A stretch of DNA of 64,000 bases, from positions 16,591 to 80,590 of the forward strand of contig CAZWKA010000003.1 in assembly GCA_964634875.1 (NCBI GenBank), written 5' to 3'. Position numbers and translations under genes: made by a program. Numbering within the stretch: the stretch's first letter is position 1; each line of letters begins with the position of its first letter. This DNA is from an uncultured Gammaproteobacteria bacterium. Lineage in GTDB: Bacteria; Patescibacteriota; Patescibacteriia; Magasanikbacterales; GWA2-37-8. This document shows positions 5,612 to 64,000 of the stretch, piece by piece. The notes under the pieces were generated by a model that had not been told where the DNA came from, did no database searches, and was given only the letters and a program-made list of their open reading frames with translations.

Positions 5612-5681
5612 GATGCTCCACTTCGTCCTATCGCTCATACGAACTAATTCGTAGGAATGATAGGGTGGGCGAAGTGGGGTG

Positions 5682-5714
5682 GGGGCTCCGCGCGTTTTTG
5701 GCGCGCGGAGCCCC
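5682..5714. repeat. perfect 13-bp GC-rich hairpin at the left edge of a high-GC islet
   Basis: GGGGCTCCGCGCG-tttttgg-CGCGCGGAGCCCC. It is preceded by a second long imperfect inverted repeat at 5617-5680. Confidence 0.7.
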
Positions 5715-5726
5715 TGGATTGGCTTT

Positions 5727-6380
5727 CTAGCGGCGCCAGAAAGCCAGAAACATGAGGGCGAAGGGTGCGGTGCAGACCGCGCCGAGGAACACGAACGCGA
5801 CGAACCGTGCTCTCGGCGAGATCCGGCTGACGCGCCGGATGGCCTGGGTGCGGCGCTCCTGCTCGGGGATCAGCGTATATGGCTGCGTGCCGTTGCTGAT
5901 GGGGTGCCGCTGCGTGCCCTGCTCTGTGATGGGGAACAGGCCGGTCTCAGCCCCACGCAGAACCGCGAGCTGCATGGTTCCCTCTCTGGACAGGTCGAGT
6001 GTCGGGATCTCTTTGGTGTCGTCCTCGTCGCCCATGCTCTGCACCTCTTTGGTGGCGGTGAGCTGGCGCTCGAACGCGGCCAGGCGCAGGTTCAGCAGGG
6101 TCTTGTCCGGATCCTCCTCCAGTTCGTCAAGGAGGGGGGTGAGAGCCTGAAGCGGGGTGACAGACGAGGCCGGCGGCGGCACCTCAAGCGGCCGAGCCAA
6201 CAGTGTCAGCGCGTAGGCCTCCTGGTGGAAGCCGCGCGGGTTCGTGGGCGTACGCTCATCCCCGAAGAGAGGGGGTGTGCGGCTCGAGGGCGGGCTGTCG
6301 GCAGAGCTCTGCGGCGGGCACGACGGGTCAATCAGGGGCTTGGCGAAAAGGGGCGGAGTCAGACTGCTGTGCGTCTTCAT
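5727..6380 (-). CDS. proline-rich protein with C-terminal transmembrane tail anchor, encoded in a high-GC islet
   Basis: ATG at 6380 has GAGGT 6 nt upstream. The C-terminal stretch FVAFVFLGAVCTAPFALMFLAFW is hydrophobic. GC is visibly far above the flanks, and the opposite strand also shows long ORFs, as expected for GC-rich DNA. Confidence 0.45.
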   Translation of the reverse strand: MKTHSSLTPPLFAKPLIDPSCPPQSSADSPPSSRTPPLFGDERTPTNPRGFHQEAYALTLLARPLEVPPPASSVTPLQALTPLLDELEEDPDKTLLNLRLAAFERQLTATKEVQSMGDEDDTKEIPTLDLSREGTMQLAVLRGAETGLFPITEQGTQRHPISNGTQPYTLIPEQERRTQAIRRVSRISPRARFVAFVFLGAVCTAPFALMFLAFWRR

Positions 6381-6420
6381 GACTGTTACCTCGCTGGGTG
6401 GCAAAAAAGGTCGGGCATTG

Positions 6421-6469
6421 TAGCGGTGAAACAGTCTGATTAATAGCTTTATTAGACTGTTTCACCGCT
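6421..6469. repeat. 17-18 bp inverted repeat (hairpin) at the right edge of the high-GC islet
   Basis: AGCGGTGAAACAGTCTGAT ... ATTAGACTGTTTCACCGCT with one mismatch. Confidence 0.7.
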
Positions 6470-6685
6470 AGAACACTTTTTTAAGGAACAAAAAAACCTG
6501 CGGCTTTCGCCTACAGGATGCTCCATCCTAGCACATTTTTAGGGTTTTGTCAAGGGTGTTTTGGGGTATTTTGGCTAATTTTAGCTATTTTTATAGTTTT
6601 AGAGTAGTTCAAATACCACTATTTACTGTTGCGGGCAAACATTTTTAAGCAGTATCTTTTCTTGAGGCAAGAAGTTATTAGTGGT

Positions 6686-7722: not shown

Positions 7723-8160
7723 ATGCTTAACCGCGATCTCATCAGCACCCTGACCCTCACTATCAACGCACCGGTCGCCAAAGTCTGGGACGGCCTTACG
7801 AACCCCGCGATGATCAAACAATGGCTCTTTGGCACCGATACCAAAACCACCTGGGAACCAGGCAGCGACCTTATTTTTAGCGGCGAATGGAGTGGGCAGG
7901 CCTACGAAGACAAAGGCAAAGTCGTCGTGTTCGAGCCGGAAAAAGTTTTGGAATATACCTATTGGAGCGCTTTTTCCAAATTACCGGACGCGCCGGAAAA
8001 TTATAGCCGCGTTAGGTTTGTTTTGTCTGATAAGGGTGATATCACCGAAATGGTGGTAACGCAGACCGGGTTTACGGGTGAAGAAGCGAAGCAGCATTCC
8101 ATGGATAATTGGAGGAGTACGCTGGGGAAGATGAAGGAGTTGGTGGAGGAAAATAATTAG
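7723..8160 (+). CDS. SRPBCC-family (AHSA1/polyketide cyclase-like) protein
   Basis: 145 aa. The VAKVWDGLTNPAMIKQW ... VVFEPEKVLEYTYWS pattern is typical of the SRPBCC/Activator-of-Hsp90-ATPase fold. Confidence 0.65.
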   Translation: MLNRDLISTLTLTINAPVAKVWDGLTNPAMIKQWLFGTDTKTTWEPGSDLIFSGEWSGQAYEDKGKVVVFEPEKVLEYTYWSAFSKLPDAPENYSRVRFVLSDKGDITEMVVTQTGFTGEEAKQHSMDNWRSTLGKMKELVEENN

Positions 8161-8171: not shown

Positions 8172-8753
8172 TTATCCCACTTGTCTTATCCAATCTCGGA
8201 TGATGCTTTGAATTCTCCCTATCTCTATTTCCGGCAATTCTCCGGTATGCATAATTATGTTTCTTGATAGTTCTAGGTCGTTAAAACGAGATGATATCCA
8301 GTGTTGATCGGGAAATAGATCGGAGAAATTCTCCCAATTAGCAACTATGATTTGAGCCAAGTTGCCAAACATTGTGTAACCTATTAACGAAGAGGATCGT
8401 GGAGTGTGGTATTTATTTTTCTCTTCTTTAGCCCTTAGATTTTCTGCTTGTTCCTGTACTTTCTTGGGAACATTGTCTTTCCACCATCCAATCCCAGCTC
8501 TCAATAAAAGTCGTTCTTCAATTAATTCTCGAACTGCGTTTTCCAAACAAAAGAACGATTGGTATGTCTTTGACATAAGACTAGCTCGATGTACTAAGAT
8601 TGGGCTGAAATCAGTTTCTTCCAAGACAGTGTCTTCCTCTTCTTTAACTATTCCCGAGTCAATCCCATCTCTCGTAAGTTTAATTAAGCTTTCGGTTGCA
8701 AGAATGCCATTAAAAACTAATTTTTTGAGCTGCTGTAAATTTGTTTTGTACAT
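8172..8753 (-). CDS. HEPN-domain protein (Rx4H motif), second gene of a two-gene cassette
   Basis: C-terminal LSRNIIMHTGEL matches Rx4-6H. Mostly helical composition. The local DNA is AT-rich, about 37% GC by eye. Confidence 0.55.
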   Translation of the reverse strand: MYKTNLQQLKKLVFNGILATESLIKLTRDGIDSGIVKEEEDTVLEETDFSPILVHRASLMSKTYQSFFCLENAVRELIEERLLLRAGIGWWKDNVPKKVQEQAENLRAKEEKNKYHTPRSSSLIGYTMFGNLAQIIVANWENFSDLFPDQHWISSRFNDLELSRNIIMHTGELPEIEIGRIQSIIRDWIRQVG

Positions 8754-8762
8754 AAGCCGGCC

Positions 8763-9389
8763 TTACTCAAATAAATTTTCTCTCAAGCTTTTAAAAATTG
8801 CACTATAGACACTTATATCAGTTGTTGCTGGCAAGTGTATTTCTATATTGTGATGGAAACTTAATGCTTTGGCTTCTTCCGGCGTTATCGGTTTTTGTGT
8901 TTTTTCATTTGTGCCACCACCTTTTTTTGTCTTCTCTTCTGTGGTTGGAGGAGGTGATATTTTAGGCGAAGCGCCAAATTTTGCTAGACCAACCAGTGCT
9001 TTATATGTCGCAAAGTATCTAGTGACCGTTTTCTCATCTTTGCCCGTAACTCGTGCCATTGCCCCTTTTATTGTATCTTCTGATTGCGTGTGCATCTCTG
9101 TATTGATTGCATAGATGTCTTTGTAGAGTTCAATTAATCTTTCCCCAATGACAAAAGGGTGGTCTTGTCGATCTTTCAGTCGGTCATAGTATTCTGTTGG
9201 AGCTCCGTCATCATTAAGTATATTAAGTCGTTTTAGAAGGGGGATTATTGCTCGGTCGTTAGAGCTTGCAAATCCCATTTGTTTAAGAAGTTCATTAGTA
9301 AATTTTTTTGGTTTTTCCGCAACTTTTATTTGTTCGAGAATAAAACTTATTTTATTGTTAGCGACCATGTAAGGGTATGTTTCTGGCAT
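8763..9389 (-). CDS. hypothetical protein, upstream partner of the HEPN gene (possible antitoxin/specificity partner)
   Basis: 208 aa. Stop lies 9 bp before the HEPN start on the same strand. No recognisable catalytic motif. Lys/Glu-rich middle region. Confidence 0.5.
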   Translation of the reverse strand: MPETYPYMVANNKISFILEQIKVAEKPKKFTNELLKQMGFASSNDRAIIPLLKRLNILNDDGAPTEYYDRLKDRQDHPFVIGERLIELYKDIYAINTEMHTQSEDTIKGAMARVTGKDEKTVTRYFATYKALVGLAKFGASPKISPPPTTEEKTKKGGGTNEKTQKPITPEEAKALSFHHNIEIHLPATTDISVYSAIFKSLRENLFE

Positions 9390-9515: not shown

Positions 9516-10664
9516 TCATTTCCTCCTCGTAAACCACCAGCTCGCCAACAGCGTCGTTAACGGCACAGCCAGCACCAGCACGCAACTGCCCACCAGCGTA
9601 CGCACTAATTCTTCGGCAATAAAATTACTATTAAGCATGATCCACAACTGGGTGGATTTTTGCATGCTGTAGAGTAATAAGAGTGGGAACGACACGCCGA
9701 CGTAGGCGAGGACGAGCGTGTTCACGAGCGAGGCAATATGTTCGCGGCCAACCGAGAGGCCGCTTTTGTATAATTGAGCCAGGGAAACGGTGGGGTTGGC
9801 AGTATGGATTTCTTCGATTACAGCGGCTTGGGCTGTGGTGATGTCGTCAAGGACACCCAGGACGCCAATGAGAATGCCGCCGAGGAGTACGCCGCGCAGA
9901 TCTATCGTGCCGGCACCAAGTTGCAGGTAAAAGGCTTCTTCGGTACCGGTGCCTGCCAGTTTGGCAAAACGAACAAAGACAATGTCGATAATAATAGCGG
10001 CGCCAAGGGTGAGGAGGGTGCTGATAAGGGCGATGGTAGTGCGGCGATTAAAGCCGTGCGAGAGGTAGAGCGAACAAAAACAAATCAGGAGGGCGGCAAT
10101 GATGCAAGCGACCAACGGGTCGTGCCCGGCAGCGATGCGAGGGATTAGGAAGCGGAAAATGACCAGGGTTGTAAAGACTAGGCCGAGGATGGAGGTGAGA
10201 CCGCGCTTGCGGCCAAAGAATATGGCGAGCGCAAAAAAGACGGCGACAAGTATGAGGACGTTGGGCAGGCGGTACTTATCGGTAATGTAATAAAAGTCTT
10301 CTTTAATGCCGCCGGCGGGCTTGGTAATTATTACCACGTCACCCGCTTGTACTTTTTGGTATTCCTGGATGGCAAAGAGGCCACCGTGGTCGATAGTAAT
10401 TTTTTTACCTTTTTCATCGCCGCTCACAATCTCAAGTTCCAGTTTTTGGTATTCCTGCGGCGTACCATCCGCGTCTTTGGTGCCGCTCTCCACGACCTGC
10501 AGAACTTTGGCGCGGGCAAAGATGTCCGGTGCATCATTTACAATGGGCGCGTCTAAGTCGAGCGGCGCTTCTTCGAGTGTCTGCATCTGTGCCCGGTGGG
10601 GGAAAAATGCGGACAAAAAGAGAATGATACAAAAGAGGCTGCGGGTAAAGAAAGTGTGGTGCAT
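9516..10664 (-). CDS. YibE/F-family integral membrane protein
   Basis: 382 aa. N-terminal extracytoplasmic domain followed by about 8 TM helices, the typical YibE/F layout. Confidence 0.7.
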   Translation of the reverse strand: MHHTFFTRSLFCIILFLSAFFPHRAQMQTLEEAPLDLDAPIVNDAPDIFARAKVLQVVESGTKDADGTPQEYQKLELEIVSGDEKGKKITIDHGGLFAIQEYQKVQAGDVVIITKPAGGIKEDFYYITDKYRLPNVLILVAVFFALAIFFGRKRGLTSILGLVFTTLVIFRFLIPRIAAGHDPLVACIIAALLICFCSLYLSHGFNRRTTIALISTLLTLGAAIIIDIVFVRFAKLAGTGTEEAFYLQLGAGTIDLRGVLLGGILIGVLGVLDDITTAQAAVIEEIHTANPTVSLAQLYKSGLSVGREHIASLVNTLVLAYVGVSFPLLLLYSMQKSTQLWIMLNSNFIAEELVRTLVGSCVLVLAVPLTTLLASWWFTRRK

Positions 10665-10739: not shown

Positions 10740-11006
10740 CTAGAAACCGTACGATTGTCGGGTGCGGTTGAAGTAGGGTTTGGGAAAGCTAAAGCTGTAG
10801 TAGAATGAATCATCGGGGTAGACGACGCGGTACCAGTTTTGGGTAGGGCGAGTAGGTGGGTGCCAGGGGTCTGCCGGTTTACTGTAATAGTAAAACTGGG
10901 TCGATCCGTTGATGAGGACAGCTTGGGCTGGGGCAGCCAATGCGCCCGAAATGCCGAGAAATAGCGCGAAGCCAAGGGCGGTGGCTATAAGGGTATTTTT
11001 TGTCAT
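10740..11006 (-). CDS. small secreted Tyr-rich protein
   Basis: ATG at 11006. Signal peptide MTKNTLIATALGFALFLGISGALAAPAQA. About 88 aa. Confidence 0.4.
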   Translation of the reverse strand: MTKNTLIATALGFALFLGISGALAAPAQAVLINGSTQFYYYSKPADPWHPPTRPTQNWYRVVYPDDSFYYSFSFPKPYFNRTRQSYGF

Positions 11007-11137
11007 AGAGAGTAAATCAGGTTTGTGTGTGAGTATAGCACACCAGGCTGAAGGTACAAACACTACAACCGCCAGGTGTAGTGGCGGTTGCGATGTCTCT
11101 ATGGCCTTCGGATTAGCGAAGGATATGTGCAGTATAT

Positions 11138-11150
11138 GCAACTAAGTTGC
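11138..11150. promoter_or_regulatory. palindrome GCAACTAAGTTGC (copy 1 of an operator-like repeat)
   Basis: Part of the ~27-bp motif GCAACTAAGTTGCGTTTGTCAAATAGG. Sits between two minus-strand small-protein genes. Confidence 0.5.
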
Positions 11151-11179
11151 GTTTGTCAAATAGGAGTTGTGGAAAACTG

Positions 11180-11545
11180 TTAATAACTAGAGTACCTGCC
11201 GTAGTATACGACGGGTGTAGGGCGGTAGCTGTGGTACGTAGGGTAATTGCGCGTTTGCCACGAGCGTAGCGGAGCATATAAACGGGTTGGTGTGGTACGC
11301 AAATAGGCGGGGGCAGGCGGGGGCACGTAACCGCGCTTGGTGACAGGCTGGTTGGGTATCGTGGTGGGGGAGGCATGGTCGGCAGCATCATGTCCATCTG
11401 CTGCATGTTCTGTTTCTTCGTTGTCGTCGTGGCTGTGCCCCGGTTCAACTATGGTCCAGGCCTGGGCTGATTCAGTTGGTCTGAGAATGGCGAGGCTAAG
11501 CGCCAGAAAGAAAAAAATTCCTATCCACGCGTGTTTGTTTTTCAT
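11180..11545 (-). CDS. small secreted His/Asp-rich protein (possible metal-binding)
   Basis: ATG at 11545. Signal peptide MKNKHAWIGIFFFLALSLAIL. Acidic His-rich segment HSHDDNEETEHAADGHDAADH. Confidence 0.4.
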   Translation of the reverse strand: MKNKHAWIGIFFFLALSLAILRPTESAQAWTIVEPGHSHDDNEETEHAADGHDAADHASPTTIPNQPVTKRGYVPPPAPAYLRTTPTRLYAPLRSWQTRNYPTYHSYRPTPVVYYGRYSSY

Positions 11546-11637
11546 AGGTAGTAGATTACATATATACAGTACTCTTGTAAGCCTCATGGTTTGGGGCGCA
11601 CAAGAGTGCTCGAGGCCGACGATCCGACCTCGGTTTG

Positions 11638-12309
11638 TTATTCGTCTGCTGGTTCGTCGATCAGTGTGCTGGGTGCTCGGGGAACCAAATCTAGCTGAAG
11701 GTACTGTGGCGACGCGGGTTGTTTTGGTTCTGTTTCCCGCTTGAGAGCGAATTTCCACCCCAGCATGAGCGGTACCAAGTGCCATTCCCAAGGGTGCCCG
11801 TTCGCCAAGTTGAGCGGTGCCAGCATGGCTGCTTCGCTGCCGATGACAAAACCTTTGTACCGGAAACTGATGCCGCCGAGCAGCGGGCCGAGTTTGACTT
11901 CGGTCTGGCTCTGGTAGGGCTTTTCAATTTCTAGCACGATTCCAGGCAGGTGCAGTTCGAGCGACCAATGCTCGCTAAGGTGGATATCAAGCCCGCCGGT
12001 AAGGTGAATGTCGCCACCCGCCCGGTCGCCACCAATTGCCGCGTGCAGGCCGGCAACAATGCCAAAGTCGACGCTGCCCGCTTCGGCGAAAGGGAATTCA
12101 AACTCGAAACAGAGCGGGGTCATGAGTTGGAGGATAAATCCGCTTCCACCCTTGAGGCCAGTTGTGGCCGTGCGGGAACTATCGTATTTGGTGGGGGAGG
12201 CTACCGCTTGGCCGGAAAATATTGGGCCACCGCACCACAAGGCTGAGGGGGATTCGGCCCTCGCAACAATGCTCCAGGCAAGGAGCGTGACGATAACGAG
12301 GTAGCGCAC
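11638..12309 (-). CDS. secreted beta-strand-rich protein (porin/OmpW-like pattern)
   Basis: GTG start at 12309 with AAGGAGA 5 nt upstream. Signal peptide. Alternating hydrophobic pattern and a C-terminal aromatic residue. Confidence 0.4.
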   Translation of the reverse strand: MRYLVIVTLLAWSIVARAESPSALWCGGPIFSGQAVASPTKYDSSRTATTGLKGGSGFILQLMTPLCFEFEFPFAEAGSVDFGIVAGLHAAIGGDRAGGDIHLTGGLDIHLSEHWSLELHLPGIVLEIEKPYQSQTEVKLGPLLGGISFRYKGFVIGSEAAMLAPLNLANGHPWEWHLVPLMLGWKFALKRETEPKQPASPQYLQLDLVPRAPSTLIDEPADE

Positions 12310-12324
12310 AGGCTTCTCCTTAAA

Positions 12325-12337
12325 GCAACTTAGTTGC
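12325..12337. promoter_or_regulatory. palindrome GCAACTTAGTTGC (copy 2)
   Basis: Lies 16 bp upstream of the GTG start of the 11638..12309 gene on its promoter side. Extended motif GCAACTTAGTTGCACTTGTACCACAGG. Confidence 0.5.
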
Positions 12338-12368
12338 ACTTGTACCACAGGAATACCTAGTTGTCAAT

Positions 12369-12381
12369 GCAACAAAGTTGC
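12369..12381. promoter_or_regulatory. palindrome GCAACAAAGTTGC (copy 3)
   Basis: Upstream of the Fur-family regulator gene. Extended motif GCAACAAAGTTGCGTTTATCCACAGG. Confidence 0.5.
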
Positions 12382-12450
12382 GTTTATCCACAGGTGCTAC
12401 TTGAAAAAACTCAGTATTTTTGCTAGACTACCAGCATTAAAGCATTTTTT

Positions 12451-16546: not shown

Positions 16547-16617
16547 GGGCGCGTCGTATAATGGTAGTACGTTGGTCTCCAAAACCAACTGCGTAGGTCC
16601 GATTCCTACCGCGCCTG
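16547..16617 (+). tRNA. tRNA-Trp (anticodon CCA)
   Basis: Anticodon stem TTGGT/ACCAA with loop CTCCAAA. D-arm GTAT..GTAC. T-arm GTAGG-TCCGATT-CCTAC. Resembles E. coli tRNA-Trp. Confidence 0.7.
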
Positions 16618-16622
16618 CTGAT

Positions 16623-16659
16623 AAAATCATAGCTTATTAATTGAGCTATGATTTTTTTG
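16623..16659 (+). terminator. rho-independent terminator
   Basis: AAAATCATAGCT-tattaatt-GAGCTATGATTTTTTT. Confidence 0.75.
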
Positions 16660-16734
16660 TTAGCGCAGGCTGTTAGAAAGGTTCATTCTATGATAAAATA
16701 AAATTTATTCGTTAATTATAGTATTACAGCCTCC

Positions 16735-17862
16735 ATGAAGATCGCTACCAATGTACATCGGGATGCCTTTGGGGGTATTACGGTCTCCAATCTTGCTCTT
16801 TTTGATTGGCTGAAAGATAAAGAAGATACGGTTGTAGGTATTGAAATCATTACGGCTCGACACCTGCTCGGGCCAGAAATATTTCGACACTATTTACCGT
16901 CTTTTTTTCATCACCACATTATTAACGGTATTGATATAATGCCTCGTTTTTCGTGGGAAAAATGGGGGAGCCCTCGAAAAAAATGGAGTATTCTCATAGA
17001 AAAAACAAAAGATATTTTACGCCAAGAGTCGCCGGATGTTGTTTTGATTAATGGAACGTATAGTACGCCTTGGATTTTGGCCCAGGCCGCACAAGAGTTG
17101 GGAATACCATTGGTTCTACGCTATGCCGGAGTGCTTCAAAAAGAAGTAAGTCATAAGAATTTTTTTATAAAAAGGCGGTTGCTAGCTTATGAAAGGTGGC
17201 TTGCTTCGTCCGCCACCAGCATTATTTTTCCTTCTCGTGTTTGCCAAAAAATTGTAGAAAAAGAAATAGTAGGACACGCTGTTCAGCGCAGCATGGTTAT
17301 TCCGAACCCTGCAGTCCCTCCAAAAAATTTGATGCGAAGAAAAGCGGGGCGTTTTACCATTTGTGCGATAGGGAGGTGGACATCAATCAAAAATTTTCAA
17401 GCATTTGTAGCTTTACACCACGAGCTTCTTTCTCAGCAATGGCAACATCGGGCGGTTATGGTAACTTCGTATTGGGATAAAGCATTTGATATTCCTGAAA
17501 CGATTGAAAAGAAAAAACAAATGAGTCAAGAAGATCTTTTCAAATTTTATCGCTCCATTGATCTTCTTGTTGTTCCTTCGCATTTTGAGACATTTTGCAA
17601 TGTTGCCGCAGAAGCGCTGGTGAGCGGAACGTCTGTTTTAGTATCAAAAAATGTAGGATTTTCTGAAATACTTATAAAGTGCGGATTAAAAAGAATGGTA
17701 ATTGACTCGTTTGATAATCCTGTAAAGGTTGCTCAAGCGGTACAGCGAATTGCCAAAACCAAACTTTCACAAAGCGAAATAAAAAAAGTTGCTTGTTTGC
17801 TCAACCCGCAAGGGATACACCAGAGCATGCTCGATGTTCTAAATAGCGTTATAAAAGTATAA
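16735..17862 (+). CDS. glycosyltransferase, GT4-like (GT-B fold)
   Basis: 375 aa. The C-terminal VVPSHFETFCNVAAEALVSG matches the EX7E motif region. Confidence 0.65.
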   Translation: MKIATNVHRDAFGGITVSNLALFDWLKDKEDTVVGIEIITARHLLGPEIFRHYLPSFFHHHIINGIDIMPRFSWEKWGSPRKKWSILIEKTKDILRQESPDVVLINGTYSTPWILAQAAQELGIPLVLRYAGVLQKEVSHKNFFIKRRLLAYERWLASSATSIIFPSRVCQKIVEKEIVGHAVQRSMVIPNPAVPPKNLMRRKAGRFTICAIGRWTSIKNFQAFVALHHELLSQQWQHRAVMVTSYWDKAFDIPETIEKKKQMSQEDLFKFYRSIDLLVVPSHFETFCNVAAEALVSGTSVLVSKNVGFSEILIKCGLKRMVIDSFDNPVKVAQAVQRIAKTKLSQSEIKKVACLLNPQGIHQSMLDVLNSVIKV

Positions 17863-17898
17863 CTAATAGTACCAAGGTCGTTCGTAGAGTGTTTTGTA

Positions 17899-17937
17899 AA
17901 AAAATACCCAAACTTTTTAAGTTTGGGTATTTTTTTG
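17899..17937. terminator. bidirectional terminator hairpin
   Basis: AAAATACCCAAAC-tttttaa-GTTTGGGTATTTTT. Confidence 0.75.
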
Positions 17938-18006
17938 TGGCCACGAGTGGGGTCGTTAGCGCGCACGCCTCGTGGATACGTGAGTGGGCAGGGGAAAGCG
18001 GTCGAG

Positions 18007-18435
18007 CTAGTTGAGGGGCTCGAGGGCGATCGTGACCCAGCGCTCGCTCTCGAGCTGCTGCTGCCGGGGCTGTCGTAGCCGCTCCTGGCTTAGCCGAAAC
18101 GAGGCACGCAGGAACGTCTCGAAGGCTGAGGCGCGTAGCGGGTTCATCTTGATGTAGTAGCACCGCCACCAGTTGGGGTTGGCTCGGTCGAAGGTGGTCG
18201 AACGGGTCGTCCGGCTCTTCTGGACCATGACGAGGATGCGACGCCCGGGACCCTTGTCGTCTTCCCGAACGAGCTCGCCTTCGTCGTCGATGCCGACGAA
18301 TTCCCTGAGGACGCGCAGAATGTCCTCGTGGAAGATGGAAACCTGGCCTGGCCACCGTGCCGCTTCTCCGTCGGAGAGCTGGTGGACCAGGATACCGGGC
18401 TCAGCCACCTCTTTACTCGCTGCTTCGATCATCAA
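18007..18435 (-). CDS. hypothetical protein encoded in a high-GC islet
   Basis: ATG at 18435 with AAGGAGG 5 nt upstream. 142 aa with no recognisable motif. GC visibly about 60% versus low-40s flanks. Confidence 0.4.
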   Translation of the reverse strand: MMIEAASKEVAEPGILVHQLSDGEAARWPGQVSIFHEDILRVLREFVGIDDEGELVREDDKGPGRRILVMVQKSRTTRSTTFDRANPNWWRCYYIKMNPLRASAFETFLRASFRLSQERLRQPRQQQLESERWVTIALEPLN

Positions 18436-18556
18436 GGCCTCCTTGGGGGTTGATAACGTGGCAGTTTATATAGCATGCCTGGTTTTGTCAATGATTAGAC
18501 CTGTCCAACAAAAAAAGACTATCGCAGAGACAGTCTTTTTGTTGGTTAAGACGTGG

Positions 18557-19783
18557 TTATTTTTTCTCAATATAATAGACGGCACCATTAAAATCGTCTG
18601 TGACAAAGAAGGATTTTTCATCGTTTACCAGTATACCGGCGGGGCGACCATGTACAGTTGTACCTTGCAAAAATCCGCTCAGAAAATCAGTTTGTTTTCC
18701 GTCTTGGGTAGTGGCAATTACGGTGTAACCAGCTTTAAGGGTTTTGTTGCCAGAGCCATGCAGGGCAACCAAGAGTTGGTTGTTGAAATAGGTAATACCC
18801 AAGGGTGCGCTGTGGGCGGGGAGTTTTACATCGGCTAGGGGGACGGTGCTGCAATCAAACGTTTTGCTCCATTCTTTACTAGTATCAGGTTCAATTGTGG
18901 TATTGGATTCGTAACAGTAGGGCCAGCCATAATTTTTGCCTTCCAACACTTCGTAAATAGTGTCGGGCGGTTGATTGTCGCCGAGGTGGTCAGCATTATT
19001 ATTGGTGGCAATCAGGGCGCTGCCCACAAACGTGAGGCCGACAGCGTTACGCAGGCCGCTGGCAAAGACTTTGCTATCGCTTCCATCCGGGTTCATGACC
19101 AGGATACTAGCCCGGCTTGGTTCGTCTTCTTTTTCTTCGCACGAGTTGCAAGAGCTACCAACCGAAACATAGAGCTTATTATTCTTCGCGACAACTGTTC
19201 GGGTAATATGCCAACCGCCTTGACCCAGCGTTCGGCCATAGGCGGGGAACGTGGCAATCGTTTCTGGTTTGGTTGTGGGGGCATTGTCACTGTTTGTGTA
19301 AGGATAGCGGATAAGTTTGTCGGTTAGGGCAATATAGAGCCAGGTTTTGCCGTCCGTGTCTGTATAAAAAGCCAGGCTGTGTGGGTTGCGGAGGTTTGAC
19401 ACGTAGGTGTGCGTGCCGGTGAATTTTTTGGTTTGTTCGTCAAATGCATCAAAAATATAGACTTTTCCGCGCCTCGTATCGCTAGCATTGTACATTTCGC
19501 CAAGGAAAAGGCGATTATCCGGGCTTTTAGCCATAAAGCGCAAGCGTTGGTAGCCTTCAGCAGCAACGCTAAGAGTGTGGTCATTAGGGTGGGTGAGTGA
19601 AAATGCCCGGCCATTTTTGAGTTTGACGGTAGTTGTCGTTGGTGCGGGTGAAGACACTGACGGTGGGGTGCTGGTTGAGAGAGGTGTTCCGTTATCGAGT
19701 GGTTCATCAAAGAATTGCCCGTTCGTGCAGCCTGCGCCAAGGAGTACTAAGATTAAGGGCAGGGCAAAAAGTATTTTTTTCAT
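18557..19783 (-). CDS. lipoprotein, PQQ-dependent sugar (glucose/sorbosone) dehydrogenase-like beta-propeller
   Basis: Lipobox LLGAGC. GWPYCYE and beta-propeller repeat patterns. Confidence 0.6.
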   Translation of the reverse strand: MKKILFALPLILVLLGAGCTNGQFFDEPLDNGTPLSTSTPPSVSSPAPTTTTVKLKNGRAFSLTHPNDHTLSVAAEGYQRLRFMAKSPDNRLFLGEMYNASDTRRGKVYIFDAFDEQTKKFTGTHTYVSNLRNPHSLAFYTDTDGKTWLYIALTDKLIRYPYTNSDNAPTTKPETIATFPAYGRTLGQGGWHITRTVVAKNNKLYVSVGSSCNSCEEKEDEPSRASILVMNPDGSDSKVFASGLRNAVGLTFVGSALIATNNNADHLGDNQPPDTIYEVLEGKNYGWPYCYESNTTIEPDTSKEWSKTFDCSTVPLADVKLPAHSAPLGITYFNNQLLVALHGSGNKTLKAGYTVIATTQDGKQTDFLSGFLQGTTVHGRPAGILVNDEKSFFVTDDFNGAVYYIEKK

Positions 19784-19954
19784 ACTAAACTCAGGTGGAT
19801 TAAAAATGACCTTAGTATCCTAGCATCATTTTTTGGAATGGGCTACTAAAGTTATTTTACGGCCAGGAGCTCTTTCTTTTTTTGACCTGTGGGTTGTTAG
19901 CTTGGAGTTTATGGTGTATACTCCCTATACTTAATTAACACTAATCGTACTCTT

Positions 19955-20710: not shown

Positions 20711-20834
20711 AAATAATTTTAAATAACTCTGATTGTTATAAATCGGAGTTATTTTTTTAGCCGAAGCAGCTCTTTACATTTTTGAGTTTCAAGCGTACGC
20801 TTACACATAATAATTAATTTTTAATTACATAGGT

Positions 20835-21422: not shown

Positions 21423-21452
21423 TTTTAAACGTAACACGCCAGCTTAAAATAT

Positions 21453-21716
21453 ATGGCCACTTCTTGTGCACATATTTCCGAAATTAAAGCTGTTACCCCG
21501 ATAACACCGGACGGCTGCACAGACTGTCTTACGACTGGTGACGAGTGGGTGGCGCTCCGTCTCTGTCTGTCGTGCGGAAATGTAGGTTGCTGTGATTCTT
21601 CCAAAAATAAACATGCGACCAAACATTTCGAGGCAACCGGCCACCCGATCATGCAGGCCTACCAAGAGGGCAAAGAATGGAAATGGTGTTATGTGGATAA
21701 GATATATGTACTATAA
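21453..21716 (+). CDS. zf-UBP-type zinc-finger protein
   Basis: The CAH...C..C....W..L..C..CG..GCC....H...H pattern matches UBP-type zinc fingers. Confidence 0.55.
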   Translation: MATSCAHISEIKAVTPITPDGCTDCLTTGDEWVALRLCLSCGNVGCCDSSKNKHATKHFEATGHPIMQAYQEGKEWKWCYVDKIYVL

Positions 21717-21850
21717 AAAAATAACCCCAGGGTTTCCTGGGGTTATTTTATAATGAAGACTGTCCTCACCCTGCCTGCATATGTACATATTCGGGCACGG
21801 TGAGATAAAGGGGACAGTCTTGAGTCTGTGGGGTTGGGGGGTCGTAGCGG

Positions 21851-22285: not shown

Positions 22286-22386
22286 GAGAATTCTCCGCGT
22301 GAAGTGGAATAGAGGTACCCTGTGCCTAAAACACTCTTTTGTCAAGCCCAGACCCCATTTCTTGAAAATAACGGGTGGCCAGGGTA

Positions 22387-48942: not shown

Positions 48943-51498
48943 TTATAACGTAGCTTCGCTGAAATCTATATCATCAGGTTTGCTGGAACCAAGCTGGGCA
49001 CGATCCATGATTTCGGCATTGACGATCTCGCGCGGACGGCCATATTTGAGGCGGGAAAGTTCTTTGATGGCAGCCGCTAGTTCCTTGTTACCTTCTTTGG
49101 GACCGTATGTCAACATATTAAAAGGTTTGGCAGCAGTATTGTCGATAAGAAGTTTAATATACGCAGTATATTGTTCGACGTTAATCAGGTCGTACGCACC
49201 AAATACAGGCGCGAATTCCTTGGCGAGAACTTCGGCGTCTTCAACACCGATACGGAAGGAAACAAGTGTGCCCGCGTTACCAAGCACGGCGTCGCGCACT
49301 GTGGTTTTACCTTTGTTGTCTTCAAGTTGCTTCATGTACTGGTGGGCAATGATTAACTCTAAGCGATACTTGCGAGCTTCGGATAAAATGGTGGCAATCG
49401 AGTCAGTAATAAAGTTTTGGAACTCATCGATGTAGAGGAAAAAGTCGTTGCGCTGGTCTTCTGGAAGCGAGGCGCGCTCCAGGGCAGCCATCTGAAGTTT
49501 GCTTACAATAATCATGCCCATCAGGTTGGCATTAATTTCACCCACTAAACCTTTGGCTAGGTTAACGAGGAGAATTTTTTTACCATCCATCACTTCGCGG
49601 AAATTAAAGCCGGAATGTGATTGGCCGATGATGTTACGAACCATTTCGTTTTCAACAAAACGTCCGACTTTGGAGATGAGATAGCCGAGCATTTCTGATT
49701 TGTGGAAGTCAGATGTTTTAGCCATTTCTTTATCCCAATAAGCGCGCACCACCGGATCTTTCAGTTTTTTCTTCCACTGATTTACAAAGGTGTCGTCGCT
49801 GAACATGCGGGGAATTTCAGCAATAGTGCCCGGGTTTTCAAGGTCCGACATGAGGGTTAACATGACGTTGCGCATGTTATGCTCAAACATTGGACCGATC
49901 ATCGACGGATCAGTAACCATTTTATAAAAAATGGAGATCATTTCTTGAGTGGCAAAGTCTTTTTGTTCCTCGCTTCTGACCTCGAGCATGTTCAGGCCGA
50001 TCGGGCGTTCAATGTCTGAGGGGTTGAAATAAATAACATCGTCGGCACGCTCTTTGGGGACGTGTTGCAGTACGTATTCGACAAAGTCACCGTGGGGATC
50101 GATAACACAGACCCCCTCACCGTTTTGGATGTCTTGAACTGCCAGGTTTTGGATAAAGACCGATTTACCGCCACCCGATTTACCGATGACATAGAGGTGT
50201 CGCCGGCGGTCGGAAACTTTCATTTTTACGAGTGTTTCTTCGCCACGGTACATGGCGCGTCCTAAGAGGAGGCCTTCTTTAGGCATGTTGGCTGGCGGCG
50301 GCGCTTTACGGGCTCCGAGCCAGTTAATGTGAGGGGTTTCGGTGTGAGGGACGGGAAGGTGCCAAAAACTAGCCATCTCCTCGGTATTCATAACCATGTA
50401 AAAACCTTCGCGCATGGAGCGATAGATCGACTCTTGGATCAGTGCGGTTTGGCGACGGGGGATGGCTGCGCCAAACGAATTGCCGTAACGGTAAATATTG
50501 TACTGGCTGAAGGAGTTGATGATGTTCTCAAGATTCAATTGGGCTTTTTCTTTGCTAGCAGCTGAGCTGATGAGGCGGATTGTAACTTCAAGTCCGCCGT
50601 GGCTGATTTTTTCTTCCATGTTTTTGACCATCTCTTCTTCCATTTGGGTGAGGTGGTATTTTTCACTGGCTGGTTTACTTGGGTCGTGCTTTTTTGGGAA
50701 AAGCAATTTGCCCAACTTCCCAATTTGGTGGAAAAAAGCGATGCGGTTGGCAACATCCTCAAATTTTTGGCCTTCGCGGATTTCGCGGATGATGTGCACA
50801 GCTTCATGGCGCCATTTTCCGCTGGCTGGACGGACGACATATTGGATGATAGCACCTTCATCTTCAGCGATTTTGCTCAGCGGGTTGAGGATGGAAAGAA
50901 GCGGGTCAGCGTCCATTTTTTTGTAGGTTTTGAAAGGAAAAATTGATTTGTGTTTGAACCACAAATAAGCTCCAACAACATGGCTCGTTGGCTTAAAAAT
51001 GTTATAATCGCTTTCCTCGGTAATTTCGGCGTGTGGATACTGGGCATGGATTTGTTGTTCGACCAGGTCGCGGATTTTATCAGGTACGGCAACGTAAAAT
51101 GAGATTTTGTTTTCTTTTACGACAATTTCAAAAGCAATATGGTCATTGCGTCCGCGCAGCCAAGGGCCCAGTCCTTTTTCTTTGTGCAAACCGGCGATGG
51201 AAGAAAAGAAAGTGTCAGCAACGGCGATTTGTTCACGGACCTGGTTGATATTGTCTTCATTGCCACCTTCTTGTTTTTCACTTTTTCTTTCTTTGGGGAC
51301 ACGGATAAGGAAGATGGTGCGGTGGAATGCCTTGCCTGCTTTATTTTTAGCGTGCAAAACCCCTCGAGCCGTAAACAAAATAGCCAGGAAAATTCCGACT
51401 ATGATAAGGCAGAAGAAAATAGCCGCGCTAATCGGGCTCGCTAGAGCGGCGTTGGCCGCTTCCCTTAGAAAATCAATAAAAGGGGTCAAGAGTTCCAT
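48943..51498 (-). CDS. membrane-anchored FtsK/HerA-superfamily ATPase, VirB4/TraC-like (N-terminal TM + ~420-aa domain + P-loop NTPase)
   Basis: Walker A VIGKSGGGKS, Walker B FFLYIDEF, then EARKYRLELIIAHQY (RKxG...TQ-like). Confidence 0.55.
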   Translation of the reverse strand: MELLTPFIDFLREAANAALASPISAAIFFCLIIVGIFLAILFTARGVLHAKNKAGKAFHRTIFLIRVPKERKSEKQEGGNEDNINQVREQIAVADTFFSSIAGLHKEKGLGPWLRGRNDHIAFEIVVKENKISFYVAVPDKIRDLVEQQIHAQYPHAEITEESDYNIFKPTSHVVGAYLWFKHKSIFPFKTYKKMDADPLLSILNPLSKIAEDEGAIIQYVVRPASGKWRHEAVHIIREIREGQKFEDVANRIAFFHQIGKLGKLLFPKKHDPSKPASEKYHLTQMEEEMVKNMEEKISHGGLEVTIRLISSAASKEKAQLNLENIINSFSQYNIYRYGNSFGAAIPRRQTALIQESIYRSMREGFYMVMNTEEMASFWHLPVPHTETPHINWLGARKAPPPANMPKEGLLLGRAMYRGEETLVKMKVSDRRRHLYVIGKSGGGKSVFIQNLAVQDIQNGEGVCVIDPHGDFVEYVLQHVPKERADDVIYFNPSDIERPIGLNMLEVRSEEQKDFATQEMISIFYKMVTDPSMIGPMFEHNMRNVMLTLMSDLENPGTIAEIPRMFSDDTFVNQWKKKLKDPVVRAYWDKEMAKTSDFHKSEMLGYLISKVGRFVENEMVRNIIGQSHSGFNFREVMDGKKILLVNLAKGLVGEINANLMGMIIVSKLQMAALERASLPEDQRNDFFLYIDEFQNFITDSIATILSEARKYRLELIIAHQYMKQLEDNKGKTTVRDAVLGNAGTLVSFRIGVEDAEVLAKEFAPVFGAYDLINVEQYTAYIKLLIDNTAAKPFNMLTYGPKEGNKELAAAIKELSRLKYGRPREIVNAEIMDRAQLGSSKPDDIDFSEATL

Positions 51499-60630: not shown

Positions 60631-62091
60631 ATGACGCACGGCGACGTAATTATCCGTTTTGATAAGGTAACCTTTGGCTATAGCCATAACCGGCCGCTTC
60701 TTGAGGAGGCTAGTTTTTCGGTACGTGAAAATGCCAAAATTACAATCATGGGCCAAAACGGCGCTGGCAAAAGCACGATTTTTAAGATGATCACCCGGGA
60801 TTTGAAACCAGAAGAGGGTGCGGTACATACCGGAATTGACGCGAGTATTGCGATCGCTACTCAGGTCATGAAGGCTGAAAACCTAGATAAAACCATTGAG
60901 GAATTTTTTGCCCAAGTTTTTGATAAAAAAATGTATGACTTGCCAAAGCGGATTAAGTCTGTTTTGGATGTCGTCCACCTGAGCGCGCCCCTTGATAAAA
61001 AAATCCGCCAGTTTAGCGGCGGCCAGCAGGCTCGCCTTCTTTTGGCCTACGCCCTTATCCAGCAGCCAGATATTTTGCTCCTGGACGAACCAACCAATAA
61101 TTTGGATGCAGACGGTATTGCGCATCTGACGCAATTTTTGATCGAATATCCTAAGACTTGTTTGGTTATTTCACACGATGCTAATTTTTTGAATTCGTTC
61201 ACCCACGGTGTTTTATACCTTGATTCCTATACGCATAAAGTTGAACAGTATGTGGGTGACTATTATGAAGTGTTAGGTGAAATCGAAGCGCAGATTGAGC
61301 GTGAACGGATGAAAAACGCACAGCTTAAAAAGAGTATTCAGGATCGTAAAGATAAAATTAACTTCTTCTCCCACAAAGGCGGTAAGATGCGCGCCTTGGC
61401 AAGTAAATTGAAAGACCAGGTAGAAGAAGCTGAAGAAGAAATGGTTGATGAGCGCCAGGAAGATAAGACGATCAACGAATTTACTATTCCGGCGCAGACC
61501 GATATTGTCGGGCCGGTCGTGACGATCGATTCGGTGGGTATTATGGTTGGCCATGAGCCCGTTCGCAAGACGCTTGCCACACCACTTGAGGTGCGTAAAA
61601 AACAACGGTTAATCATTAAAGGGCCGAACGGTATTGGTAAGAGTACCTTTTTAGCAGCTCTCGCAAGCGGTGAAGAAGCGGGCGCAACTATCGCACCGGG
61701 TGCGCGCGTGGGATATTACCGGCAGGATTTTTCAGGGCTTGATTTTGATAAGACTGCGTACCGGGCGCTTGAAGAAATGATGGACCGCCCGTGGAACCAA
61801 GAAATTTACGCGACGGCTGCCCAGTTTTTATTGTCAGCGGATACGCTCAAAAATAAAGTGGGGTCACTGAGTGAAGGACAGAAAGGTTTGCTCTGTTATG
61901 CCCGATTTGTTTTACAAAAACCAGGTCTCCTTATTATGGACGAGCCAACTAACCATATTAATTTCCGTCATTTACCAATTATTGCGAAAGCCTTGGATCG
62001 ATTTGAAGGGGCGGTAATTGTGGTTAGTCATGCGCCGGAGTTTGTGGATGAGATGAAGTTTGACCAGACGCTTGATTTGGGGGCTTTGTAA
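60631..62091 (+). CDS. ABC-F family ATPase (tandem ABC domains, EttA/Uup-like)
   Basis: Two Walker A boxes (GQNGAGKST, GPNGIGKST) and two LSGGQ signatures, joined by a charged linker. Confidence 0.85.
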   Translation: MTHGDVIIRFDKVTFGYSHNRPLLEEASFSVRENAKITIMGQNGAGKSTIFKMITRDLKPEEGAVHTGIDASIAIATQVMKAENLDKTIEEFFAQVFDKKMYDLPKRIKSVLDVVHLSAPLDKKIRQFSGGQQARLLLAYALIQQPDILLLDEPTNNLDADGIAHLTQFLIEYPKTCLVISHDANFLNSFTHGVLYLDSYTHKVEQYVGDYYEVLGEIEAQIERERMKNAQLKKSIQDRKDKINFFSHKGGKMRALASKLKDQVEEAEEEMVDERQEDKTINEFTIPAQTDIVGPVVTIDSVGIMVGHEPVRKTLATPLEVRKKQRLIIKGPNGIGKSTFLAALASGEEAGATIAPGARVGYYRQDFSGLDFDKTAYRALEEMMDRPWNQEIYATAAQFLLSADTLKNKVGSLSEGQKGLLCYARFVLQKPGLLIMDEPTNHINFRHLPIIAKALDRFEGAVIVVSHAPEFVDEMKFDQTLDLGAL

Positions 62092-62107
62092 AAAATATTT
62101 AGAAAAA

Positions 62108-62135
62108 CAGGCTTAGGCCTGTTTTTTATTTTTGA
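62108..62135. terminator. bidirectional terminator
   Basis: AAACAGGC-ttag-GCCTGTTTTTTATTTTT. Confidence 0.75.
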
Positions 62136-62370
62136 TCAGTTTTATTTTTTCTTGCCGCGATAATTTTTTGATGGCAATTTCGCGCTTGAGGGCGGGGGAG
62201 AGGGTGCGGAAGTTTTCTTGGTGGACGAGTTTGACGGGGCGCCGAGCGCGAGTGTATTTGGCGCCGGTTTTTCCTTCGTTATGGTTTTTAATTCGTTTTT
62301 CGACATCGTTCGTATAGCCGGTGTAGAGGGTTTTGTCGGAGCATTCCAAAATGTAAACTGTGTATTTCAT
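62113..62370 (-). CDS. GIY-YIG nuclease family protein (YhbQ/UPF0213-type)
   Basis: YTVYILECSDKTLYTGYTNDVEKRIKNHN. Confidence 0.8.
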   Translation of the reverse strand: MKYTVYILECSDKTLYTGYTNDVEKRIKNHNEGKTGAKYTRARRPVKLVHQENFRTLSPALKREIAIKKLSRQEKIKLIKNKKQA

Positions 62371-62740
62371 ATTTGTTTATTTTAACATTTAAGACGTCGA
62401 AGTGTATAGCCTGCTCGTTACCTTTTTGGCAGCAAAAAGGTAACCGAAAAACTGCCCGAGCTGCTATCCGCTTCAGCACCACTTCGGATTCGTCGTCGCT
62501 CACCGGCCAATGTTCCTGCGCCGGAACTGTGGCCAGTGTGCCTCTGGGCACCGCTTCTCCTCATCTCGAAGCGGAGCTTCATCGGCTCGGGGCTCGGGGG
62601 AGTGGCGAAGTGAGCGTTGGTCGTGTGAGTGATTGTTTTTTAAAAACTAAAAAACAGCCTTTTTGAAAGCTGTTTTAGTAGGTGCCCCAGAGGTACGTGG
62701 GGCGGCGCTGCACGAAGGTGTGCGAGTGGGGTTCGGTTGG

Positions 62741-63681
62741 TCAGTAGTCCCGCAGGTCGCGGGTTTCGCGTCGCCAGATGCGGCGCTGGTCGCTCCGGTG
62801 CTGCCCGCTCGTGAGGCAGCCATGAAGCAGGTTGCGTCTGCTCCAGACGAAGCTCCGGAACTCTTGCTTCGTCATCTTCATGGACCGACGGAGCTTGATG
62901 ATGTTTCGGTGCCGGACTTCGTGGCCGCGGTTGTAGGACAGGTTGATGTGCTTCTGCTCTTCATCCTTCGAAGACGAATCAGAAGCGATCTTCTTGTCCC
63001 ACTTCGCTTCGAGGAGCTCGAGAGGGGTCAGCTCATCGAGCGGGTGCTTGAGGTACCGCTTCTCGAGCCACCGGACTTCGCGAGTCGATCCCTCTGCCTC
63101 CTTGCGGTGGCTGAGGTAGGCTCGCTGTTCCGCCTTGGTGAGGAGCTCGTGCTCCTTGTCCGTGATGCGCCCGGCGCACTTCAGCTGGTCGGCCTTGACC
63201 ATGGTGAGTCCGCCGATCGTTGGCCAGTCACCCCCTTGGATCTTGGCGAGTAGATCCTGGACTTCGGCGAAGGCTTCGTCGAGCACCTCGGCCCAGCGTG
63301 CCGCTTCCTCGGCCTGACGCTTGCGACTCGCTTCCTCGGCCGCTCGCTTGCGGTCTGCCTGTGCCGCCGTGATCGCGGGGTAGGCGGCTGTGGCTTGTTC
63401 GAGCCAGGTTGTAGTGGGCTGGTAGCTGTCGAGCACGCGGTTGATGAACTCCATGATCTCGTGGTCCACGTACTCGAGCTGCTTGAGCTCCTCGATCTTC
63501 CACTTCAGCTGCTGTGCTTCACGCCCGAGCCGGCGGCGCTCCAGTTCCCCGGAGCGCTCCAGTTCCATGCGCTGTTCAGCGGCCAGGCGCGCCTGTTCAG
63601 CATGCTTCGACCGCATGGTGTAGCTGCGGCCGCGGCTGAAGTAGGGTTGAGGTTCCATGACGATCTCGATCTTGCGTCCCA
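62741..63681 (-). CDS. coiled-coil-rich hypothetical protein encoded in a high-GC islet
   Basis: ATG at 63681 with GGAGAGA upstream. About 60% GC by eye. The long Arg/Glu/Ala-rich helical region suggests a coiled-coil. No catalytic motif recognised. Confidence 0.4.
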
Positions 63682-64000
63682 TGTGTCTCTCCTTGTGTGT
63701 ACGGTTGCCCGCACTCACGAGGATTGACTGGTGGGAATGGGTCAGGTCGTTCGTGCGGTTGTTCAAACAAAAAAGACTAACGTTGGAAACTCATTGGTCG
63801 CCTCCTTGTAAAAGTGCTCGTCGTACCGGACTATCCCGGTTGTTTCGACGGTTTTTGCTCTGTGGTTAGCCAAAGGGAAAAAACCGCTAAAACAAGGCAC
63901 GGAACAAGCCAGTATAGCACAAAAAACGGGTTTTGTCAACCCCCTTTAGGAAGCTCCTGTTACAGTTTTATTGAAGAAATTCGTTGATTTTTTGTTCGAT

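Follow-up and report, generated by a model that had tools for sequence, protein, structure and literature searches.

The 64-kb stretch of contig CAZWKA010000003.1 analysed here (the window) carries a succession of cellular genes, the backbone, interrupted by short segments of high G+C (GC) content, the islets I1 to I8, whose gene content and origin are the subject of this study. Mean GC across the window is 0.467, and the sliding-window profile contains eight segments at 0.55–0.72. The profile is not uniform (the standard deviation of 200-nt windows is 0.065, compared with 0.035 expected under binomial sampling) and it places the short high-GC islets described in an initial annotation of this DNA almost to the base, segments of at least 0.56 GC coinciding with those listed there. 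Islet boundaries were set by change-point analysis (a three-segment likelihood fit), with flanks at 0.38–0.46 GC, as follows:

5663–6402, minus strand: I1, GC 0.67
17939–18449, minus strand: I3, GC 0.64
21792–22326, minus strand: I4, GC 0.57
31888–32286, minus strand: I5, GC 0.61
32927–33450, minus strand: I6, GC 0.62
45841–46160, plus strand: I7, GC 0.58
62454–63758, minus strand: I8, GC 0.61

An additional broad rise, to 0.54 at approximately 9.5–12.3 kb, covers the I2 area. A single open reading frame (ORF) is present in each of I1, I3, I4, I5, I6 and I7 (134–217 amino acids) and in I8 (313 amino acids), in agreement with the initial annotation, whereas the rise at 10.7–12.35 kb holds three.

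In each islet one frame has coding-type GC at the three codon positions (GC1/GC2/GC3 of 0.66/0.51/0.84 in I1 and 0.64/0.42/0.81 in I8), with a ribosome-binding site (RBS) and start codon in place, and gene calls on other assemblies match the predicted products of I3 (141), I4 (144), I5 (134), I6 (163) and I8 (313 amino acids) exactly. Stops are few in GC-rich DNA, each islet has several overlapping ORFs and many hairpins lie in or near the islets, as they would if these were GC-rich structured non-coding RNA genes with the ORFs as by-products. This is extremely improbable given that one frame is strongly period-3 (GC3 minus GC2 of 0.3–0.4) with an RBS and ATG, that the independent gene calls give identical starts for I3, I4, I5, I6 and I8, that a Pfam domain is found in I4 and protein-level homologues exist for I6 and I8, and that no Rfam family was found. 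No islet gave an Rfam match at the gathering score, the E-value scan yielding weak hairpin matches only, and the tRNA scan found none inside any islet.

Independent support for the assembly comes from Logan contigs of run SRR12762304. At 100% identity these cover 16589–28432 with I3 and I4 (L084, 12.6 kb), 30513–35958 with I5 and I6 (L085, 5.4 kb) and 62427–64000 with I8 (L081, 2 kb), so that both junctions of I3, I4, I5 and I6 are crossed, and I8 is crossed too. The chimeric assembly raised as an alternative in the initial annotation, with reads of a high-GC organism misjoined into a contig of the Candidate Phyla Radiation (CPR), finds some footing at I1 only, where Logan contigs halt at both edges (they end at 5685, in a poly-G tip, and resume at 6386), the interior lies outside the independent contigs and the protein is not on record. 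Even here the flanking contigs reach 16–22 nt into the GC-rich DNA, and the end of one of them (L173) is a poly-G artefact. The islets moreover sit exactly in intergenic gaps, with fitting RBSs, promoters and terminators, and occur at equivalent sites in a sister species, and a chimera is very hard to credit.

Based on its protein matches, the backbone is a Patescibacteria/CPR genome, Magasanikbacteria-like and of ~45% GC. SecA is 71% identical to that of a Candidatus Magasanikbacteria metagenome-assembled genome, the nearest named relative; the other close SecA matches are Patescibacteria and none is from the Saccharibacteria. In relatives this far removed the GC profile is flat. The Pfam gene set is typical of CPR and includes TIM, SecA, a SecD-PPIase fusion, SecF, LigA, DnaX, CysS, type IV pilus genes, sortase and UmuCD.

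Codon-driven and amino-acid-driven islets

The islet genes fall into two classes when their GC is compared with that expected from the protein sequence under the backbone codon table. Backbone genes have a GC of 0.454 ± 0.033 and a third-position GC (GC3) of 0.447 ± 0.061, whereas GC3 is 0.84 in I1, 0.81 in I3 and I8 and 0.73 in I5 (z-scores 4.6–6.5 against the backbone); the GC of I2, I7 and I4 is close to the limits of ordinary backbone variation. Observed minus expected GC is +0.13 to +0.14 in I1, I3 and I8 (z > 5, with a GC at fourfold-degenerate sites, GC4, of 0.75–0.83), +0.09 in I5 (z = 3.9) and +0.03 to +0.07 in the remaining islets. I1, I3, I5 and I8, here class A, are foreign-looking at synonymous sites. 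They are alike in codon usage (relative synonymous codon usage, r = 0.63–0.80), show no correlation with backbone genes and prefer CTC, GTC, GCC, GGC, CGC, AAG, GAG and CAG.

In I2a–c, I4, I6 and I7, here class B, the excess comes mainly from a Pro/Ala/Arg/Gly-rich composition. For I6 the amino-acid z-score is 4.1 and the codon z-score 1.7, the Pro/Ala/Arg-rich sequence being the main source of GC, while I4, I2a–c and I7 are mild in both respects (the GC4 of I4, 0.56, is inside the backbone range and the codon excess of I7 has z = 1.4). Other backbone genes on the minus strand or antisense to their neighbours (FolD, hyp150 and GSDH) have ordinary GC.

Three other loci in the window are compositional outliers. 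The AHSA1-like (7723–8160) and YibE/F (9516–10664) genes have a GC4 of 0.77 (z = 2.6) with ordinary amino-acid composition, and are further outliers at the codon level, but with known domains. Between them, the HEPN_Swt1 and DUF5343 gene pair (8172–9389) is a low-GC outlier (0.37–0.38, z about −2.4), and looks like a toxin-antitoxin or defence-type module from a lower-GC source.

Occurrence of the islets in related genomes

The sister species is represented by the JGI contig Ga0490023_000476 (L086), which was found via the I4 search and is syntenic with the window over ~10–34 kb. Its SecA is 90% and its other backbone proteins are 50–98% identical to those of the window, fourfold sites are saturated (23–39% identity), backbone GC is 0.469 and islets lie at the same places. 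The I4 orthologue (67–69% identity) is antisense and syntenic, between sortase and hyp195. The orthologue of I6 (478–960, 160 amino acids) is 37% identical (E = 2e-10), and the I6 promoter, leader, 3′ tail and terminator are more conserved than its coding region. At the I2 sites the counterparts have 89, 98 and 186 amino acids; I2b and I2c are orthologous, and the 186-residue counterpart of I2a, at the syntenic site, aligns weakly (36% over 39 amino acids). I2a–c, I4 and I6 have thus been passed down vertically with the sister species, saturated synonymous sites notwithstanding.

Class B consists of resident, lineage-specific, fast-evolving genes, most of whose products are secreted, membrane-anchored, disordered or regulatory, and this is an ordinary explanation. 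Like other fast-evolving lineage-specific secreted or disordered proteins, I6, I2a–c and I4 are kept in position yet diverge quickly, and their biased Pro/Ala/Arg/Gly composition with signal peptides or tail anchors is nothing unusual. GC by itself therefore over-calls transfer, half of the islets being resident genes with a GC-rich amino-acid composition.

The class A genes are distributed differently. I5 is missing from the sister species, where the gap between SecA and EVE is 4 nt (GGAC) compared with an exact 574-bp segment in the window. L001, which is more distantly related, has SecA and SecD ~95 bp apart and lacks all of EVE, UDG, I5 and I6. I8 is missing from a contig whose ABC-F is 83% identical to that of the window (L092), in which ABC-F and a GIY-YIG gene are followed by RecQ. 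The I3 site of the sister species has a 135-amino-acid ORF with a GC3 of 0.74–0.77 that shows no detectable homology to I3 (E = 0.21), although the two ORFs have in common the last ~10 codons, a CCACGAG...CTCGTGG hairpin and the terminator.

The repeated horizontal acquisition proposed in the initial annotation is therefore retained in part: I1, I3, I5 and I8 are codon-foreign and I5 and I8 are absent from relatives (L086 and L092, respectively), whereas the GC of I2, I4, I6 and I7 is mostly amino-acid-driven and I2, I4 and I6 are vertical. By synteny, I5 (sister species), I5 and I6 (L001) and I8 (L092) are missing, and I2a–c, I4 and I6 are kept in the sister species.

The interval between SecA and SecD (31810–34349) is ~95 bp in L001, contains EVE and I6 in the sister species and I5, EVE, I6 and UDG in the window. 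It is a general hot spot of gene gain and loss, normal-GC genes (EVE and UDG) included. Into the adjoining SecD gene (34350–36398) a tandem peptidyl-prolyl isomerase domain of PPIC type is inserted (Pfam Rotamase_3, E = 2e-34), a fusion kept in L001 and L003.

Approximately 80 related metagenomic loci have mostly flat GC, and a few (L098, L111 and L112) have similar small GC3-rich ORFs, none of which is homologous to an islet gene of the window. The example in L098 (14181–14642, minus strand, 153 amino acids) lies in a Patescibacteria contig of 39% GC and is followed by a GC-rich 3′ tail and terminator; its combination of a GC3 of 0.92 with a GC2 of 0.32 is at odds with derivation from a high-GC genome of the ordinary kind.

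Transcription units and neighbouring genes

Transcription-unit anatomy was predicted from consensus scans only. The high-GC DNA begins at about the RBS or start codon and extends as a C-rich, G-poor tail 20–90 nt beyond the stop codon, while the DNA upstream is AT-rich with sigma70-like promoters. The scan placed promoters at 6553 (I1), 18491 (I3), 11159 (I2c) and 63939 (I8), and those of I5 and I6 were located by eye. The promoters of I1, I3 and I8 read TTGACAAAACC, as does that of the backbone desaturase gene. Intrinsic terminator hairpins are predicted downstream of the islet genes. The features of the class A units are:

5727–6380, minus strand: I1 ORF, 217 amino acids, Pro/Ser-rich N-terminus and hydrophobic C-terminal tail, GAGG RBS 8 nt before the ATG
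5682–5714, minus strand: GC-rich hairpin with a 13-bp stem just past the I1 stop codon, inside the C-rich 3′ tail
5567–5618, unstranded: bidirectional terminator (A-run/stem/T-run) at the convergent junction of a gene for 985 amino acids and I1
6418–6473, minus strand: hairpin with 26-nt arms in the AT-rich I1 5′ leader, sub-threshold Rfam hairpin matches only
~6490–6513, minus strand: terminator-like hairpin of the I1 leader
6525–6553, minus strand: sigma70-like promoter of I1
18007–18432, minus strand: I3 ORF, 141 amino acids, followed by a C-rich 3′ tail with a hairpin at 17941–17975
18463–18491, minus strand: I3 sigma70-like promoter (TTGACAAAACCA ... TAAACT) in AT-rich DNA
17898–17936, unstranded: perfect 18-bp bidirectional terminator at the convergent junction of GT4 and I3
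31810–32383, minus strand: I5 unit, 574 bp from the SecA stop to the EVE start
31813–31873, minus strand: I5 terminator, next to the C-rich tail
31908–32312, minus strand: I5 ORF, 134 amino acids, signal-peptide-like N-terminus
32336–32363, minus strand: I5 promoter
62741–63682, minus strand: I8 ORF, 313 amino acids, Arg/Glu-rich and helical
63777–63939, minus strand: I8 leader, with promoter TTGACA-N17-TATACT (63911–63939) and an imperfect hairpin with 26-nt arms (63840–63895)
62454–62672, minus strand: GC-rich stretch of ~190 nt with no convincing ORF (62454–62640) and the I8 intrinsic terminator (62645–62672)

Of the seven islet genes, five run antisense to the genes on either side, compared with 5 of 53 backbone genes (Fisher p = 8e-4), which bears out the antisense placement against plus-strand genes noted earlier. 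Insertion against the direction of the flanking operons would give convergent junctions, and these junctions carry long bidirectional terminators. The bracketing of islets by long hairpins that had also been noted is correct in that each of the window's six longest local hairpins lies beside an islet, but most of them are bidirectional terminators of the A-run/stem/T-run type, and the same form occurs at non-islet junctions.

The C-rich 3′ tail of I1 contains ACCCCAC and ends with CGCCCACCCT. The ACCCCAC motif, which is weak and was noticed post hoc, is present in four of six islet 3′ tails, compared with 0.22 expected. Over the GC-rich hairpin past I1, 5623–5717 (plus strand) matched the Rfam Streptomyces sodF small RNA at 33.7 bits; the gathering score is 46 and the match, being below threshold, was taken as probably due to chance. 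Tail anchors are predicted from sequence in the I1 and I6 proteins. Structure prediction gave a weak alpha/beta model for I3, with no structural neighbours, and a model for I5 (predicted local distance difference test score 37) that is unusable for function.

In the I8 leader a mini-ORF of five codons (MSFQR-stop) with a strong RBS is found at 63777–63794, and a mini-ORF of three codons (MRT-stop) occupies the equivalent place upstream of an I8 homologue (L082, ~235–246). These mini-ORFs may reflect a leader-peptide type of control. A GIY-YIG nuclease gene (62113–62370, 85 amino acids, PF01541) lies between ABC-F and I8; such a gene is also beside ABC-F in L092, which lacks I8. Only I7 lies near a tRNA gene. 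The class B features are:

10740–12303, minus strand: I2, three secreted-protein genes beside Fur-ZnuABC, mostly amino-acid-driven GC
10740–11006, minus strand: I2c
11180–11545, minus strand: I2b, His-rich
11638–12303, minus strand: I2a
21851–22285, minus strand: I4, stand-alone receiver-domain protein, 144 amino acids (Pfam PF00072, E = 1.6e-10)
21713–21804, unstranded: long 3′ hairpin of I4 (21765–21804), then a bidirectional terminator (21713–21754)
32927–33587, minus strand: I6, with ORF 32974–33465 and promoter 33559–33587, 163 amino acids, Pro-rich, tail-anchored
45819–46226, plus strand: I7, a weak islet, 135 amino acids, lipoprotein-like N-terminus, antisense to the adjacent genes, beside tRNA-Gln (46376–46447)

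A palindromic box (consensus about TGCAACTnAGTTGCA) occurs three times in the I2 area, at 11136–11157, 12323–12344 and 12367–12388, and overlaps the promoters of I2c, I2a and the divergent Fur-ZnuABC operon. It is probably the operator of the adjoining Fur/Zur-family regulator, which would place the secreted I2 proteins, including the His-rich I2b, in a metal-starvation regulon. The 3′ hairpin of I4 is kept in the sister species (~10470–10520) with an altered stem, CTCACCGTGCC/GGCAGGGTGAG compared with CTCACTCTG/CAGAGTGAG, which suggests a conserved structure. Between hyp195 and I4 is a small conserved zf-UBP-type ORF (21446–21712, plus strand, ~88 amino acids), below the ORF length cut-off and recognised via ~80–85% DNA identity to L086 and L090. 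Elsewhere in the window, a UmuC/UmuD pair (41819–43518) and an 851-amino-acid VirD4/TraG-like coupling-protein homologue (48943–51498), with likely roles in damage tolerance and DNA transfer, could be relevant to gene uptake.

Origin of the codon-foreign genes

Searches of Pfam, PHROGs, NCBIfam and PADLOC gave no family match for the islet proteins except the I4 receiver domain, and no match was found for the proteins tested among phage (50,697 records) or plasmid (72,556 records) sequences by tblastn, or in IMG/VR viral contigs. A phage or plasmid origin was rejected on these results. At 90% identity I3, I4, I5, I6, I8, I2b and I2c are singleton clusters. Deep homology searches cover I8 and I4. 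An exhaustive HMMER search with I8 against 1.84 billion representatives returned, besides I8, only two weak relatives (E = 6e-5 and 1e-4), all three having the N-terminal motif GRGRSYT..HAE..ELERSGEL in common, and a metagenome scan with the I8 family alignment found no matches. One relative is on a 1.5-kb contig of 60% GC (L082), with promoter then mini-ORF in the same order. The other (L083, P0003) adjoins an ORF resembling the RNA-polymerase alpha C-terminal domain (alpha-CTD; 1–225, PF03118, GC3 0.81) and a membrane-protein gene of 40% GC. L083 was considered as a high-GC donor genome and rejected: because this right flank is only 40% GC, the contig looks like another islet. Taxonomic placement through the alpha-CTD-like ORF was uninformative, its best match among the related loci being only 39%.

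The islets share no DNA or protein similarity with each other. No direct or inverted terminal repeats of at least 9 nt and no target duplications were found at the islet boundaries, no integrase or transposase is among the Pfam matches of the window and no att-like sites were found at the islets. A shared mobile element was rejected as the islets have no common sequence, terminal repeats or target duplications, and the shared mechanism that the initial annotation thought possible is likewise not borne out.

We read class A as moron-like lateral insertions of single genes from a GC3-rich pool, and class B as resident genes. Each class A unit would consist of one gene with a C-rich, G-poor 3′ untranslated tail, set into an intergenic gap, with a sigma70 promoter and RBS of backbone type for its expression and intrinsic terminators at its close. 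Given that neither an integrase or transposase nor repeats or att sites were found, entry would have been by DNA uptake followed by illegitimate or flank-guided recombination, and selection would favour a transcriptionally insulated, antisense placement. The lateral origin, the route of entry and this selection are what we infer from the composition, anatomy and distribution of the units.

Several observations weigh against this reading. The deep searches with I8 and I4 found no homologue in any genuinely high-GC genome, and the I8 relative on L083 is itself in a GC3-rich islet by a 40%-GC gene. Promoters and terminators are AT-rich and of backbone type, even inside the 574-bp I5 unit, unlike a raw fragment from a donor of 65–70% GC, and the islets lack mobility genes, target duplications and terminal repeats. 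The I5 difference may be a gain in the window or a loss in the sister species. The I3 site is GC3-rich in both species despite saturated fourfold sites, which implies that it was replaced independently or that its high GC is actively maintained. Confidence in moron-like insertion is moderate, because only the ORF and 3′ tail look foreign and because the I3 site stays GC3-rich in two species.

The same observations lend something to the view that class A comprises old, fast-evolving resident genes in which the high GC of ORF and 3′ untranslated region (UTR) is actively maintained, possible causes being selection acting on the stability or structure of the mRNA, or local repair or conversion biased towards GC at sites prone to recombination. 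GC3 is high at the I3 site in both species (0.81 and 0.74–0.77), with C-terminal codons, 3′ hairpin and terminator kept despite saturation; the GC-rich domain is the transcribed ORF and 3′ tail, between AT-rich regulatory flanks; similar small ORFs occur at other Patescibacteria loci, such as that of L098 with its AT-genome-like amino acids; and the I8 relatives are islets themselves. Yet the closest relatives examined lack I5 and I8, no homology is detectable between the two I3-site proteins, and the antisense or minus-strand FolD, hyp150 and GSDH have ordinary GC. We also know of no mechanism that would keep the GC3 of single bacterial genes 0.35 above that of the genome. A resident origin of class A is possible, but unlikely.

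More tentatively, and with rather little expectation that it is correct, the Patescibacteria clade can be pictured as holding a circulating pool of GC3-rich mini-genes (ORF plus C-rich 3′ UTR, with AT-rich regulatory DNA) that do not drift to host composition and could be swapped at fixed intergenic sites such as the I3 site, downstream of GSDH, where unrelated GC3-rich ORFs of the two species precede one conserved 3′ hairpin and terminator. If true, this would imply an integrase-free route of cassette exchange, unrecognised so far, or selection for GC-rich mRNAs in a mid-GC genome.

The initial annotation had in mind an episymbiont of a high-GC host, repeatedly and recently capturing DNA from that host (for example, an Actinobacterium) by one shared mechanism. 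The class A codons (GTC > GTG, CGC, GGC, AAG and GAG) are compatible with Actinobacteria-like or other genomes of 65–70% GC, and PilM, a pilin, PilD and a type IV coupling protein-like ATPase encoded in the window could serve DNA uptake. However, no known high-GC host goes with the Magasanikbacteria-like backbone; among the 1.84 billion representatives no identified high-GC organism has an I8 homologue; and no Actinobacteria, phage, plasmid or viral homologue was found for the proteins tested. The inserts are exactly one ORF with AT-rich regulatory DNA and no neighbouring donor gene fragments, half of the islets are vertically inherited and there is no common end sequence beyond the weak, post-hoc C-rich motif. 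Host capture is very unlikely, and capture from a high-GC Actinobacterial host is unsupported.

With their tiny genomes, CPR/Patescibacteria rely on other cells, and how they gain genes is an open question. Here four codon-foreign one-gene units occur in 64 kb, with a neat unit anatomy and with no mobility machinery or traceable donor found. If GC3-rich genes form a persistent, exchangeable class, they would point to a new way in which episymbiotic bacteria turn over accessory genes; otherwise, they are ordinary small-scale horizontal transfer.

Among known systems, diversity-generating retroelements do not correspond to the islets, as no reverse transcriptase is among the Pfam matches and no repeat pair involves the islets. 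Integron cassettes resemble the islets in being short one-ORF units with a structured 3′ end, and different ORFs are found at the I3 site. Unlike cassettes, the islets have no integrase, attI, recognisable attC or array, are dispersed, have their own predicted promoters and run opposite to their neighbours; their 3′ ends share a short C-rich motif only and the hairpins are unrelated. Horizontally acquired genomic islands and islets offer another comparison. Atypical composition and codon usage are found in I1, I3, I5 and I8 (not clearly in I2, I4, I6 and I7), together with patchy presence in relatives, accessory genes and more genes than usual that lack a family match. The units differ from genomic islands in size (0.4–1.3 kb, one gene), in having no integrase or flanking direct repeats and in their native-like regulatory DNA, and no donor lineage emerges, I8 having two weak relatives on short contigs and I4 its closest match in the sister-species orthologue.

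Phage morons are independent one-gene transcription units between phage genes (Cumby, Davidson & Maxwell 2012, PMC3594210). Unlike morons, the islets lie among cellular genes (SecA/EVE, GT4/GSDH and ABC-F; also SecD, DnaJ and LigA) with no prophage, there being no PHROG match save the I4 receiver domain and no phage or viral match for the proteins tested. Like morons, whose products are often accessory, surface or regulatory proteins, each class A unit adds one extra gene, its GC is unlike that of its neighbours (in GC3 for all four genes) and it may be missing in relatives, as are I5 in the sister species and I8 in L092. The promoter and terminator that such a unit would have of its own are predicted here. 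The best reading of class A is a moron-like lateral gain of single genes, a known kind of process, in a CPR chromosome instead of a phage.

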